This document shows, piece after piece, positions 1-9,000 of a stretch of DNA of 22,596 bases. Made by a program: the position numbers. Numbering within the stretch: position 1 is the stretch's first letter; the number at the start of each line of letters is the position of its first letter. Source of the stretch: a bacterium (GTDB taxonomy: Bacteria; Oederibacteriota; PGYV01; Palsa-1178). Where the stretch lies: NCBI GenBank assembly GCA_037138355.1, contig JBAXIL010000029.1, positions 1 to 22,596 of the forward strand. Direction: 5' to 3'.

Positions 1-3000
1 TTGAAATTTTCAACAAGAGGAAGATATGCTTTACGCGCGATGATTATGCTCTGTGAACACTATGGAGATGGTCCGCTAACTATACGCGCAATATCAGAAA
101 AACAGGAAATATCGTTAAAATATCTTGAAACAATCATGAGAACTTTTGCAACAGCTGGTTTGGTAATTAGTGCAAAAGGAAAGAGTGGTGGTTTCATACT
201 GGCTAAGAATCCAAAAGAAATCACTATGACTGATATACTTAAGACATCAGAAGGGACTCTTTCACCAGTTGCATGTTTGGATAACCCAGATATATGTGCA
301 CTAAAGGAAAGTTGTAAGTCTATGAAAATGTGGAAGGAATTAAAAGAAATAACTTTGAAATATCTGGATTCTATAACATTAGAGGCAATCGCCACACAGG
401 AAATGCCAGAAAAATTTATTAAACAAACTTAAGGTGCAAAACCTAAAGAACAATAAATATTAGAAATTAAGAGTTGTTTTAGGAATGTTCTGAAGAATGT
501 CTTTATATACTCTAAAGTTGATTTCAGAAGTTTTGATTTGTATTATACAAAAATCTCCAAGGGATCCAGTATCTTTAAGAGTCGAAATCATTGAAGATTT
601 CTCTGAAAGAAGTTCAAGTCCTACTTTTACTTCAAGAGAATCAAATTTAGAAAATAGTTTTGCTGTTCCATGAACCTGAGTCTCAGAGGAGTCATCAAGT
701 TTATTACTTGGACCGAGTATTAAGAGGTTGGCGTAAGAATTTTTAGCAAGTTCGGATATCTTTTTAGATGTTTTGTTTGTAACAAGGTAAAAATTTTTCA
801 AATCGGAATCTGCTGCAAAGACCATAATTCTTGAGTTGATTTTATCTTGGTCAAAAGTATTAAAAGTTGTGTAAAGAGATCTTTGAAGGACTAAGGATAT
901 GAAGCCTGCATCGTATTTTAACTTTGGCATGTCTATTGCTCCTTTTTAAAACTTGTAGTCGGTAATGTCATATTTCTTTATTAATAGTAGCATAAATACT
1001 TTATCTTTCAATAAATATTTTGATAAAATAGCATTATAATCAAAATAACTGGGAGTATAGGAAAAAGATTTTTTTGACATAATATAAAGATTAAGTTATA
1101 ATGATATCAGTTCAATGATATTTAAACTATAAATGATGATATTATAAGGAGAAGAAAATGAGGATTTCAACCAGAGGAAGGTATGCCACAAGAGCTTTGT
1201 TACATCTTGCTACAAAGTATGGTAAATCGCCTGTTTCACTAAAAATAATCTCAATAGATCAGGAAATATCAGTAAAATATCTTGAAAATATAATGCGCCT
1301 GCTTGTTAAGGTAGGCTTAGTAAAAAGTACTAAAGGTAAAAATGGTGGTTTTGTTTTGGCAAAGGCACCAGAAGACATTAACTTGAGTGAAATAGTCACA
1401 GCTGCGGAAGGGTCTATAGATCCAGTTTTTTGCGTAAGTGACCCAGCGAGTTGTAGTCGTGCCAGATTTTGTTCTTGGAGAGATGTATGGTCAGAATTAA
1501 AACTTAGGACAATGGAATATATGAACTCAATTACACTTGCTGACATGTTAGAAAGACAAAATATGAAGGCAAAGATAAAAGTAAAAAACAAAAGCAAAAA
1601 AAAGTAATATATAAATTAGCAAAATAATTATATTTATTTTGTCCTTTCTAAAAATCCTCTTATTCTGGTTTTTTTAATATAAAAAAATATTAATTACAAA
1701 AAATTCCAAAAAATATTTTCAAATAAATATTCAAAAAAGCAATAAAATCAGCATATTTCGTATCGAAATAAAACAATAATGGTAGCATAATGCCTAAAAC
1801 ATTATTGACAACATACTTTGCAATTGCTATATTAATTTTAAGTTAATGAATTAATAAACTCTTAAACTTGTCAGAAAGGAATGTAAATGAAAGAAATAAT
1901 AAAAATGCAGGCGGACATATGTAAAACATTTGCTAATCCTTCAAGACTTCATATAATTAATCTTTTGTGTAAAAAAGAAATGAACGCTGCGGAATTAATA
2001 AAAACCGTAAAAGTGAGTAAAGCGAATCTATCCCAGCATATGTCCATGTTAATTAGCAAAGGTATTGTAGTATCTCGTAAAGAAGGAGTGAATGTGTACT
2101 ATGTGTTAAGTGATAAAAAAATATCGCAGGCTTGTTCTCTAATGAAAGAAGTTGTCGTGAATTCTATAAATAATAAAATGAAATCAATAAGATAAGCATA
2201 ATAAAAAAACATGGAGGTTTTTATGACACAAGATGAGTTGAAAGCTATTAAATCAGACAAGATAGTGGATGCGAGAGGTTCTTCTTGCCCAGGACCGTTA
2301 TTGGAGGCAAAAAAAGGCATAGGTGCTGTAGCAGTAGGTCAGATTATAGAGATATTAGCAAATGATCCAGGGACCAAAAAAGACATACCAGCGTGGTCTT
2401 CAAAAGTTGGACAGGAGTGCTTGGGAGTAATAGAAGATCCATCATACGACAGAATTTTTGTTAAAAGACTCAAATAAATAATCAATAGTAGTATGAGGTT
2501 AATAGTGCTTTTAAAAAAATGGAGATAATTTCTGAATACTATAAAAGATAAAACACAAACTAAAGCAAAGATACTTCTGATAACTATGGCGCGCAGTTCT
2601 TATTTAGCGGCGGACGCTTTAGGTCAATTGCATATGGAATACTCTGCTGATGTATATATTATAAAAACTCTATATCCTGGAATATTACCTGCGTATTTTT
2701 ATTTGGATTCATTTCAAAAAGGGATAGATGGAATTATCGTTGCTGCCGCAGGGGCAGATTGTCCGATAGAGGATTCATACAAACAACTGTCTGAAAATAT
2801 TAAACAGGCTCATGCCACTATGACTGAAAAAACAATGAATGTAAAAAGATTAAGACTTACTGCTATTTGTTCGGTTTGTACAAATGCACTATTAAAGGAA
2901 ATAAATCAAATGTCGGAACTAATTAATAAAGAAAAATCAGAAGGTAGATTATGAAAAAATATCATTCCATAGTTGTGGGCGCTGGTATTGCAGGAATGGA

Positions 3001-6000: not shown

Positions 6001-9000
6001 CATCTATTTTAGAAGGTGGAACAGTACATTTGGAACCATTTGTAGCAGTGGTTGATAAAATAAAATGTAAAGGGCATGGTAATTGTATAAAAGTATGTCC
6101 AGCTGCTGGCGCTATATTTATTAATAAAGAAAATAATAAAGCAGAAGTAAATCCAGTGCTCTGTATTTCGTGTGGAAACTGTGTGGCTGTATGTCCTGAA
6201 AGAGCAATAGATGTCCAAGGTTTTGAAATAGAAAAATTTGAAAAAATTGTTGATGAAATTATAAAAGTTTAAGTTTTAAAAATGAAATTATTGAGTGTTT
6301 TAGATTTTGAAATTTGAGTATTGTTGCAAACAAAGGAGAAAGACATGAAAGGTATTGAGGCAATAAAAAAGTTTAAAGAGAAGCATGGTCCTTTACAAAA
6401 AGAACTTTTGGATTGGATAAGATTTTGCAATACCTCAATGGTATGTATAAGAAAAAAAATGAAGGAAGAACCAATCACTGCACCTCAAGCGGCAGAAGCT
6501 GCTGGAATAAAATCAAATGAAGCGTTTTGGATTATTAATGCTATGAGAAAATATGGAGAAGTGGTAATAGTGGGGGATGATAATGGATATAAAAAGTATA
6601 GCTTGAAGGAAAACATAAAATGATAAAAGTTAATCCTGAATTGATAAAAGATATTAAGAAATATGGCGCTTTTGATGTGTCTGCCTGTTTTAATTGTGGC
6701 AATTGCACAGCGATTTGTCCTTTATCCACAGAAAAATATTCATTCCCAAGGCAAATGATAAGAAGTGCGAGCATAGGGGATGAAAAGACAATTCTTTCAA
6801 AGAAAGAAATGTGGTTGTGTTATTATTGTGGTGAATGCTCAAAAACTTGCCCGAGAGAAGCTAAGCCAGCAGCTTTTATGGCGGCAGCAAGACGCTATGC
6901 AATAGCTAAAGCTGATTTGACAGGCATAACAGGACTTTTATATAAATATCCAATATTTAATTTTATTTTTATGTCTATAATGGCAATAGTATTCGGTCTT
7001 TTTATGTATGCAAACAGGGTAGAGGCAAGAAGTACAGAAAAAATTATAGAAATATTTAATATACCATACCATCTTATACATACGATTGGTTTGGTAGTTA
7101 TAGTATTAGCAACTTTGACTCTTTTGTCTGGTATGTTTATTATTGCTTTAAGAGAAATAGATGTAAAATATATATTTGAATATTTAAAGAAAAATAAAAA
7201 GTTGCTTTTTGATTTAAAATATATTTTCAAACTTGTTAAAAATGTGATATTGACAGTTGGTCAGGAATTGTTTGCTTTCAAACGATTTAGGGAATGCGAT
7301 GAAGAAAAAAAGGAAATACCATTTATGCTAAAACCATGGTTTTTGCATGCTACTGTGGCATGGGGATTTATGGGTTTGTTTTTATCTACTGTAATTGATT
7401 TTTTGTTTAAAGATCCAGCCATAAAAGTGGCGCTTTGGTATCCTCCAAGGTTTTTAGGTATAGTATCTGGTATAGTATTACTTTATGGGGCAACCGTGAT
7501 TATTATAAAGCGCTTAAATGTCAAAGAAGTGAATTATGCTAACAGCACATTTTCTGACTGGTGGTTTATAGGAAATCTTTGGTTTATTGGTTTAACGGGA
7601 TTTGTATTAACTGTATTGGTATATTTGCCGTCAGTAAATCAAAAAACAGCAGATATTTTATTTATATTTCATGTGGCACCAGCAATGCAAATCGTAGTTA
7701 TGGCGGCATTTACAAAATTGGCGCATGTTTTTTATAGAACGCAGGCTTTAGTAGTACATAATCTTAAAGAACAAATTACTAATTTCAAATAGGAGGTGTT
7801 GTTATGGCAGAAGAAACAAAGAAACTTTCAATTATCTGTTTTTCAGGAGATTTTGACAAGGCACTTGCGGCAATGGTTTTAACAAGCGGTGGAAGGGCTT
7901 TTGATTATGAAGTAAACTTATTTTTTACTTTTTGGGGACTTAATATTTTGAAAAAAAGAAGTGGACGCAGGCCAGGCAAAGGCATGTTTATGCAGAAAAT
8001 GTTTAATATGTTAATGGGCGGTCGCAATAATCTGCCTCTTTCAAAGTTTAATTTTGGTGGTATTGGGCCAGAACTTATGAAGGGAATAATGAAAAAGAAA
8101 AATATCAAAGATGTGGATGGTATGCTCCAAGATGCAATACAATTAGGAGCAAAAATTTATGCTTGTGATATGGCAATGAGTGTAATGGGCGTTTCAAAAG
8201 ATGACCTGATAGATGAAATAACAGATATAGTTGGAGTTGCCACATTTATAGCAAATGCTGAAGGTGGACAAGTACTTTTTATTTAAAGAGCAGTTTAATA
8301 CAAAAAAGAGCTTAAAAAATTATATAGCAGGCAGTATTTAATAGCTTTTTCCTTTTAAAAGCTATCATTTAAGCCTGCTATTTTTTTGTCTATATTGTTT
8401 AAAATGTGCTATATTATATGTATTAAATGACAAATACAGTATTGAAAGGAAATGAATTGAAAGCAATATCTCTCTTGTCAGGCGGATTAGATAGCACACT
8501 TGCTACGAAAATTATTAAAGATATGGGTATAGAAGTAATAGCCCTTAATTTTACATCTCCTTTTTGTCAGTGCGGGGGCAAACATAAAGATGGGTGTAAA
8601 CATAAGGCACAGGAAATGGCCGAACAGTTGGGCGTAGAACTTAAAATGCTCAATAACTCTGTAGAGTTTATAGAAATAATCAAACATCCCAAGTATGGTT
8701 ATGGGAGTGGAGCAAATCCGTGTATAGATTGCAGGATATTAAAGTTTAAGACGGCAAAGAAATATATGGAAGAAATAGGCGCATCATTTATTATTACTGG
8801 TGAGGTTGTAGGACAAAGACCTATGAGCCAAAACAGACGGGCAATGGATATTATAGAAAAAGATAGCGGTTTGGATGGATTGATAGTCCGTCCTTTATGT
8901 GCAGGACATATGAAACCTTCTATTCCTGAAGTAAATGGCTGGATAGATAGAAGTAAACTTTTATCCATTGAAGGTAGGAGCAGAGAAAAACAATTAGATC

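Follow-up and report, generated by a model that had tools for sequence, protein, structure and literature searches.

Type II Qmo complexes also occur where Dsr and Apr are missing, and according to the available portions of the paper describing them, their role needs experiments (PMC10504309). The question is raised anew by a stretch of 22,596 nucleotides (hereafter the window) from a bacterial genome, G000, which is 94% complete: what does a membrane Qmo-like complex do in an organism in which no APS reductase is found?

An eight-gene operon without APS reductase

All eight genes are encoded on the + strand at positions 1887-8286, in the order arsR-tusA-mvhD-hdrA-hdrA-wHTH-qmoC-dsrE2 and with intergenic spacing of -4 to 72 nt; re-reading of the window bore out the order and extent given in the genome-wide survey's note. 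The best sigma-70-like promoter candidate of the region (1805..1833, + strand) matches 11 of 12 consensus positions and has an extended -10 element, but is weak because the total of 35 sites in the promoter scan equals the shuffled mean of 35.0. Inverted repeats upstream of the operon are AT-rich and were dismissed as unconvincing. Two RNA contigs from one run span positions 2320-2522 and 8040-8278, and no operon contigs were found in two other runs; coverage as sparse as this does not demonstrate that the operon is expressed.

The operon is real and conserved. In a metagenome scan that replaced the GTDB survey, and for which the best 80 of at least 465 relatives were used, tusA, qmoC, an mvhD-like gene, both hdrA genes and the gene for the winged-helix protein were present in all 24 long loci; a DsrE-type gene was present in 22 and an ArsR gene in 9. 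Of the partners previously called fixed, the DsrE proteins vary in length and type across loci; ArsR is not fixed. The QmoC query matched 13 of 99 phylum genomes, 12 of which (including G000) carry this operon, against the 11 counted earlier; the remaining match, G001, has an hdrC-hdrA-canonical mvhD locus instead. The operon-type TusA subfamily and the MvhD-like protein (denoted MvhD*) are found in the same 15 of the 99 genomes, with score gaps of 120 versus 66 bits and 153 versus 91 bits, four of the 15 being absent from the profiles used. Taxon names among the relatives are FCPU426/Goldiibacteriota, Spirochaetia, Planctomycetes, Deltaproteobacteria, Chloroflexota, Anaerolineales and Limnocylindrales, plus Atlas cluster taxa, and QmoC-like clusters number 3053 at E<=1e-30, a figure that may include type I. 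The breadth reported earlier from GTDB (80 of 570+ loci) was not reproduced, a GTDB scan with one QmoC protein returning 2 loci, and no relative was found in the viral contigs searched. QmoC itself is not fixed: G032 and G033 have hdrC and a single-CCG protein, seen only in this variant, in place of qmoC. In locus L088, the same HdrA-short, winged-helix protein and QmoC are joined to a [NiFe]-hydrogenase.

In the window, the operon is preceded by two Rrf2 regulators and followed by an MnmA/ThiI-like gene. Such neighbors would suit an assimilatory persulfide generator, in which sulfide loads TusA for tRNA thiolation or Fe-S synthesis. This reading is improbable, since the MnmA-like gene adjoins the operon only in one locus, identical to the window, among the 94 scanned, and the patchy presence (15/99) argues against a housekeeping role.

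The absence of Apr noted previously was upheld: AprA was detected in none of the 99 phylum genomes at E<=1e-30, a setting at which the control is silent (at E 0.001, the AprA model finds SdhA in G000 and is positive in 6 controls), and no SdhA-like gene is present in the 94 loci scanned. The same applies to Dsr, Sat and HdrB, with Sat found in 0 of 15 carriers, and neither a siroheme reductase nor the HdrB/CCG domain (PF02754) in G000, where searches for a molybdopterin enzyme and a bd oxidase were likewise negative. An ordinary Qmo, serving APS reductase or some Sdh-family flavoprotein encoded elsewhere, would have precedent in Vulcanisaeta moutnovskia and Ammonifex degensii, both sulfate reducers with a type II Qmo (PMC10504309, available portions), but the results for AprA, Sat and SdhA-like genes make it very improbable here.

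Subunits and sulfur carriers

The 2 HdrA proteins both show strong HdrA likeness (domain scores of 397 and 493 bits). By sequence comparison, HdrA-short (2951..4231, + strand) comprises the FAD domain with an inserted 2x[4Fe-4S] domain and the LDC cysteine, without N- and C-terminal arm domains. HdrA-long (4266..6272, + strand) has the arm domains, with the cluster at its N-terminus and the ferredoxin domain at its C-terminus, and its FAD domain is without K409, E356 and LDC. K409 and E356 are described as a bifurcation signature in the accessible parts of PMC12054007, and correspond to Lys270 and Glu218 of HdrA-short. The K409 equivalent is present in 43 of 43 HdrA-short versus 0 of 54 HdrA-long sequences; at the E356 position, all 43 HdrA-short sequences have E or D and 5 of the 54 HdrA-long sequences have E. 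According to the portions available of PMC12350162, MvhD and the N and C termini of HdrA form an arm feeding the FAD of the partner. By sequence, HdrA-short and HdrA-long together make up a single half, an asymmetric one, of the Hdr machine of methanogens: HdrA-long supplies the mobile-arm domains, while HdrA-short provides the FAD that bifurcates, the port for ferredoxin and the connection to QmoC. This division of labor was overlooked by the earlier reading. A GltD-type module is inserted in the HdrA-short of 9 metagenome loci.

The mvhD-like gene (2532..2954, + strand; PF02662) appears to start at a non-ATG codon, CTG 2532, because the ORF from ATG 2586 is without the first beta-strand. MvhD* retains the MvhD/FlpD fold (AF2 pLDDT 88.5; Foldseek match 5ODC_D, E 3.7e-11, rmsd 1.4 Å), so that its earlier designation as MvhD is right for the fold, but the canonical [2Fe-2S] cysteine set is gone, which that designation overlooked: in the window protein, 3 of the 4 Cys aligned to the cluster site of solved MvhD are replaced. 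Instead, MvhD* has a new CxxC, Cys113/Cys116 (nt 2868-2879), plus Cys77. The CxxC is found in 86 of 88 sequences and the canonical CxxCxY in none; Cys77 is replaced by Ser in 11 of 65, and a 13-member subclade has 4 Cys. In the predicted structure, Cys77, Cys113 and Cys116 lie at strand ends on one face; the site there may be a dithiol or else an Fe-S cluster that is open at one position, and a cluster with new ligands is possible. Longer MvhD* "fusions" (20 matches) were set aside, most of the 7 read being frame-shifted text on single contigs. MvhD* was not found described in the literature searched.

The small protein with a winged-helix fold (6345..6623, + strand; ORF open from TTG 6321, ATG 6345 following an RBS) has its gene ahead of qmoC in 62 of 62 loci, and its domain is fused to the C-terminus of HdrA-long in 8 loci; it is probably a subunit of the complex. 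The fold search returned generic winged-helix matches only (best Z 10.5) and no specific relative. The QmoC-like protein (6620..7792, + strand) has an HdrC-like 2x[4Fe-4S] domain and 6 hydrophobic segments. Its best match was again NCBIfam qmoC (E 2.9e-54; 3e-54 in the earlier note), with a score to NF038018 of 184.9 bits, below the 300-bit cut-off. His243, His351 and His369 are conserved in 79 of 79 sequences and His154 in 73 of 79, and are putative b-heme ligands. The protein has in common with the QmoC of both QmoABC types the 2x[4Fe-4S] domain and a membrane domain with 4 His.

The ArsR/SmtB-family regulator (1887..2195, + strand; NF033788, 73.7 bits, cut-off 55), with Cys14, Cys28 and Cys84, is accessory. 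By cut-off it is not a BigR (49.9 bits, below 155), and the ArsR cysteines are not conserved between loci, so that persulfide sensing is not proposed. The sulfur carrier TusA (2211..2477, + strand; PF01206; likely start ATG 2223) belongs to an operon-specific subfamily in which CPGP, conforming to the CPxP of TusA carriers, is invariant (37/37), as stated before. A role in Moco supply was dropped because no molybdopterin enzyme was found in G000. The DsrE2-like carrier (7804..8286, + strand; PF13686, 158.6 bits; NF047629, 67.6 bits, below 210) also keeps its conserved Cys, in agreement with the same note.

Direction of electron flow

Our tentatively preferred reading, held with slightly less than even confidence and with direction and substrate deduced from neighbors, is that electrons from ferredoxin and menaquinol are confurcated and reduce sulfane sulfur, carried by TusA/DsrE, at MvhD*. 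DsrE would load TusA, which in turn would present its sulfane sulfur to MvhD* on the side of the CxxC. Reduced ferredoxin, or NAD(P)H where the GltD module is inserted, would give one electron and menaquinol, by way of QmoC, the other; the two would come together on the FAD, and the persulfide would be reduced to H2S. In G000, apparently an H2-producing fermenter, the Nuo cluster could be the source of the quinol, which would make sulfur reduction serve as an electron sink or for detoxification. The proposal is supported by the TusA/MvhD* co-occurrence, the invariant core of the long loci, the CxxC, the K409 split and the rhodanese or CoA-disulfide-reductase-rhodanese genes near 5 loci, by the arm role of MvhD and the HdrA termini, as well as by the absence of AprA, Sat and HdrB, by the lack of a siroheme reductase, molybdopterin enzyme and bd oxidase in G000 and of a hydrogenase or formate dehydrogenase partner for MvhD*, and by the two [FeFe] hydrogenases, Nuo and Sdh/Frd that G000 encodes. 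Standard potentials are about -450 mV for ferredoxin and about -75 mV for menaquinone, and their mean of about -260 mV matches that of S0/HS- (about -260 to -270 mV). If NAD(P)H is the donor, the potentials fall short of S0/HS-, which counts against the proposal, as do the hydrogenase join in L088, the CCG protein of G032 and G033 as a possible alternative sulfur site, and the Ser replacements of Cys77. The same holds for HemB, MqnA/D and YeeE, none of which was found in G000 (HemB is found in only 5 of 12 QmoC carriers). The concern raised earlier over quinones is eased by the presence in G000 of a MenA-like prenyltransferase, a Nuo cluster of the 11-subunit type, and SdhABCD together with cytochrome b. 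That the operon encodes an undescribed cytoplasmic sulfur-respiration enzyme, in which confurcation joins menaquinol, too weak alone, with ferredoxin so that carrier-bound sulfane sulfur is reduced at a thiol or open-cluster site derived from MvhD, is possible, if doubtful.

Homology to Hdr makes the MvhD port an electron input and points to oxidation, against the proposed reduction. The same machine might accordingly take electrons from sulfide or carrier-bound sulfur at MvhD* and, like sHdr systems, bifurcate them, menaquinone being one acceptor and ferredoxin or NAD(P)+ the other. The port is the input in Hdr in the portions available of PMC12350162, and in those of PMC11094781, TusA and DsrE feed sHdr and rDsr, both oxidative pathways, while the electrons of type II sHdr are proposed to reach menaquinone; YeiH-like genes lie near 2 loci. 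However, HdrB is absent from QmoC-type carriers such as G000, Sat is lacking in all 15 carriers, and the only sinks in G000 are Sdh/Frd, with no bd oxidase or molybdopterin reductase found, rendering the oxidative direction rather unlikely. Alternatively, the complex could be a ferredoxin/NAD(P)H:menaquinone (or disulfide) oxidoreductase of energy metabolism, with TusA and DsrE only building or repairing an unusual MvhD* cluster. The 3 Cys on one face (4 Cys in the subclade) could bind such a cluster, two relatives have a TusA of another kind behind hdrA-mvhD-mvhG-mvhA, and L088 has its hydrogenase; yet no donor module is present in the 24 long loci, and the two different carriers together with rhodanese neighbors suggest a bulk flux of sulfur, so we consider this role unlikely. 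The earlier proposal of quinone-coupled sulfane-sulfur reduction or detoxification is supported in part: the system is Apr-independent and closely tied to TusA and, in most loci, to DsrE, and action on sulfane sulfur is still the best reading, but quinone coupling is not general (G032, G033 and L088).

Significance and relationship to known systems

The operon encodes a widespread, unstudied membrane redox machine, related to that of sulfate respiration, in which the subunit where electrons normally enter has been rebuilt and is accompanied by sulfur carriers; it may be the means by which many anaerobes that have no known sulfur enzymes reduce sulfur of the elemental type. The published question of type II Qmo without Apr or Dsr thereby receives a specific, testable answer with named residues. 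If sulfane-sulfur reduction is true, anoxic habitats would have a further route to sulfide, one that surveys of marker genes overlook, and qmo matches alone should not count as sulfate reduction. A bifurcating Hdr with a sulfur carrier replacing hydrogenase at the MvhD port would be a new use of the scaffold. Under the more doubtful sulfur-respiration reading, energy-conserving S0 reduction would be open to thousands of Psr/Dsr-free anaerobes, and "type II Qmo" would mostly not be a partner of APS reductase.

Like sHdr-LbpA, as described in the available parts of PMC11094781, the operon encodes an HdrA-like flavoprotein together with TusA and DsrE sulfur transferases. Unlike sHdr-LbpA, it has membrane QmoC and no sHdrB, and the hosts seen are anaerobes without a sulfite-oxidation route; the core shdrC1B1AH(C2B2 or B3) is not present, with no CCG protein found in G000. 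Type II QmoABC likewise has two HdrA-like flavoproteins and QmoC, by its description in PMC10504309. The operon is a candidate member of type II, whose QmoA and QmoB should lie closer to HdrA than to their type I counterparts. Apr-free type II Qmo is already in print, with its function given as unknown; the available portions of that paper do not mention the TusA/DsrE linkage, MvhD* or the winged-helix protein, and the carrier link was not found in the literature searched. In its supplementary table, Vulcanisaeta qmo is separate from aprAB, and QmoB and QmoC accessions are separated by a gap of one number in both species, which would fit a gene such as that for the winged-helix protein in between.

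The QmoABC of type I, found in sulfate reducers and Chlorobi, shares the diheme-type QmoC with an HdrC-like domain and the flavoprotein heterodimer. QmoB carries an MvhD domain; in the operon, MvhD is a separate, rebuilt protein and the winged-helix protein stands where QmoB has this domain. Further differences are the lack of AprAB and Sat and the QmoC score (184.9 versus 300 bits). In type I, QmoC is exchangeable for HdrBC/HdrD-type subunits (PMC10504309, available portions). Compared with methanogen HdrABC-MvhD (PDB 5ODC, 7BKB and 8RVU), the operon encodes a heterodimer with one bifurcating FAD, without HdrB or an MvhAG, FdhAB or ElpAB donor and with changed MvhD ligands, but shares with it the HdrA domains, the bifurcation residues in one subunit and the MvhD fold.

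Gene content and conservation of the operon

All 8 genes listed in the genome-wide survey's note are present in the window (contig C29 of G000, a 1.66 Mb genome, 94% complete), on the + strand at 1887-8286, with tight spacing or overlaps. Family scans matched ArsR, TusA, FlpD/MvhD, QmoC and DsrE2 among the products, recognized a 426-aa and a 668-aa HdrA-like protein (HdrA-short and HdrA-long) and assigned no family to the small winged-helix ORF (wHTH, 93-100 aa). QmoC is indeed the best match of the qmoC product (E 2.9e-54), though its 184.9 bits lie below the cut-off of 300. 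Just upstream (1-1607), 2 Rrf2 (IscR/CymR-like) regulators stand either side of a PNPOx-like gene. Immediately 3' (8427-9455) lies a gene for an MnmA/ThiI-like protein with an NFACT-R domain, which has a paralog on contig C36 and is not kept beside the operon in other loci. Judging from the ORFs themselves, 11221-21239 seems to encode RND-type heavy-metal efflux together with a copper chaperone, a P-type ATPase and a YHS protein.

Of the 99 phylum genomes, 13 gave a match to a QmoC query; the operon is present in 12 of them, G000 among these, and the match in G001 belongs to an unrelated hdrC-hdrA-mvhD locus. In G035 the match is in 2 pieces (C143:48523-49596), reflecting decay or assembly error, as may the split of both qmoC and HdrA-short in metagenome locus L052. 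A metagenome profile scan confirmed at least 465 relatives, of which the best 80, hence biased to close relatives, were used; 2 of these duplicated the window and 3 more were near-duplicates, and without them 75 remained. Among these best-scoring loci, tusA, an mvhD-like gene, HdrA-long and wHTH occur in all 24 whose sequence covers 5.6 kb or more upstream of qmoC, HdrA-short in 23 (the remaining one, L062, being a short-long fusion), a DsrE-type gene in 22 (one miss at a contig end) and ArsR in 9, the small-gene profiles having been made from the same loci after an initial search with the window's proteins and L100, of another layout, standing outside these tallies. In the same set, wHTH lies upstream of qmoC in all 62 loci with enough room. 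In these loci the fixed partnership described by the survey holds for TusA, MvhD and wHTH, nearly so for DsrE, and does not extend to ArsR. Rhodanese-type genes are close to 5 loci and LysR to 6; in L039 and L054 the stretch upstream of dsrE holds, ahead of the operon, genes for a Crp regulator and a class V (cysteine-desulfurase-like) aminotransferase.

A rebuilt MvhD and an asymmetric HdrA pair

The operon's MvhD-like protein (MvhD*) has the predicted fold of MvhD (pLDDT 88.5; rmsd 1.4 Å to the solved methanogen chain 5ODC_D), but of the 4 cysteines that correspond by alignment to the cluster site in solved MvhD structures, the window protein has other residues at 3. In 86 of 88 homologs the canonical segment has given way to IC(S/T)VC, the 2 exceptions being truncated or chimeric, and none of the 88 has the canonical CxxCxY. 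Cys113 and Cys116 are invariant (65/65); at position 77, 54 of the 65 have Cys and 11 have Ser. In the predicted structure the motif lies where strand 4 finishes and the last helix begins, a topology that would put it on the same face as the former cluster. In the tree, 41 MvhD* rows group into one clade (100/100), apart from 3 canonical rows. The TusA subfamily of the operon tracks MvhD*: each is present in 15 of 99 genomes, the two sets coincide, and the two genes are neighbors; the score gaps are wide, and the profiles were built without G020, G024, G032 and G033.

In Hdr complexes, the cysteine of the LDC motif binds the partner's N-terminal cluster. HdrA-long retains the cysteines for the N-terminal cluster as well as the C-terminal ferredoxin, but Lys409 is found in 0 of 54 sequences and LDC is absent (L028, L062, L100 and duplicates left out). 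Published work gives K409/E356 as the proposed bifurcation signature (PMC12054007) and describes, for methanogen Hdr, a mobile arm that MvhD builds together with both termini of one HdrA and that serves the other HdrA's FAD (PMC12350162). Read against that scheme, these residues and domains indicate that HdrA-short and HdrA-long together form exactly one working half of the Hdr machine. A GltD-type insert within HdrA-short in 9 metagenome loci points to NAD(P)H.

Host metabolism and direction of the reaction

The sequence-level evidence covers composition, HdrA asymmetry, the rebuilt MvhD and the absence of an APS route. AprA was found in 0 of 99 phylum genomes at a threshold at which the control was silent too (the same model picks up SdhA in G000 at a loose threshold), Sat in 0 of 15 carriers and an SdhA-like gene in none of 94 loci, bearing out the reported lack of Apr and making a hidden APS-reductase-like partner very improbable. 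A siroheme reductase domain, its type not further resolved, is present in 5 of 15 carriers, G000 not among them, and YeeE in 3 of 15.

Searches of G000 found no CCG domain, molybdopterin enzyme, bd oxidase, HemB or MqnA/D. The genome encodes 2 NADH-dependent [FeFe] hydrogenases, a CoA-disulfide-reductase-rhodanese, SdhABCD with cytochrome b (C23:2907-6107), a MenA-like protein scoring below cut-off and nuoABCDHIJKLM, without NuoEFG, which runs to the contig end and adjoins a polyprenyl synthase (C16 from 25164). By these genes G000 appears to be an anaerobic, fermenting bacterium that keeps a quinone pool, which eases the survey's concern over quinones, and it probably scavenges heme and the quinone head group.

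Sulfane sulfur borne by TusA/DsrE would be the substrate at MvhD*, where ferredoxin and menaquinol would jointly reduce it (confurcation). Potentials place such a reaction near equilibrium, so the same machine could also run in the opposite direction; oxidation is nevertheless rather unlikely, as G000 is without oxidative sinks and sulfite disposal. For the same reason we tentatively favor reduction, in keeping with the quinone-coupled reduction or detoxification suggested in the survey. That the TusA/DsrE carriers are maturation factors is somewhat less probable than oxidation, and a role in assimilation appears doubtful indeed.

Variants of the module and known systems

In G033 (L114:3588-10809) and G032 (L115:8938-16186), the run dsrE-tusA-mvhD*-hdrA-hdrA-wHTH does not lead into qmoC; next come hdrC and a gene for a single-CCG protein, in which the C-terminal CCG domain alone is intact. 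The G020 locus is cut. This swap shows the membrane arm to be the exchangeable part of the module, and quinone coupling as proposed in the survey is not general. Fusion of wHTH, whose fold match is generic only, to the C terminus of HdrA-long in 8 loci favors a subunit over a regulator. In 1 of the 75 loci (from the best 80 of at least 465), L088:2-3854, the gene for the large subunit of a [NiFe]-hydrogenase precedes those for HdrA-short, wHTH and QmoC, with a probable maturation protease in the same run; this hydrogenase-linked variant shows that the module can accept other partners. Separately, L119:6281-11533 (G022) and L120:6320-11543 (G019) carry hdrA-mvhD(canonical)-mvhG-mvhA and then a TusA unlike that of the operon, its motif being CPQP in L119; hdrBC was not recognized within either stretch. 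This is a second Hdr-TusA pairing.

The accessible parts of PMC8477390, PMC11094781, PMC8528874, PMC12998232 and PMC12142623 do not describe the operon, and full-text searches of the literature, judged mostly by titles and abstract openings, yielded no account of the TusA/DsrE link or MvhD*, though the supplement of PMC10504309 may show synteny. The operon is real, widespread and uncharacterized, and its proposed mechanism is testable. It belongs to the Qmo/Hdr kind, and the variant of G032 and G033 has a known parallel in the QmoAB-HdrBC/HdrD arrangement described in PMC10504309.
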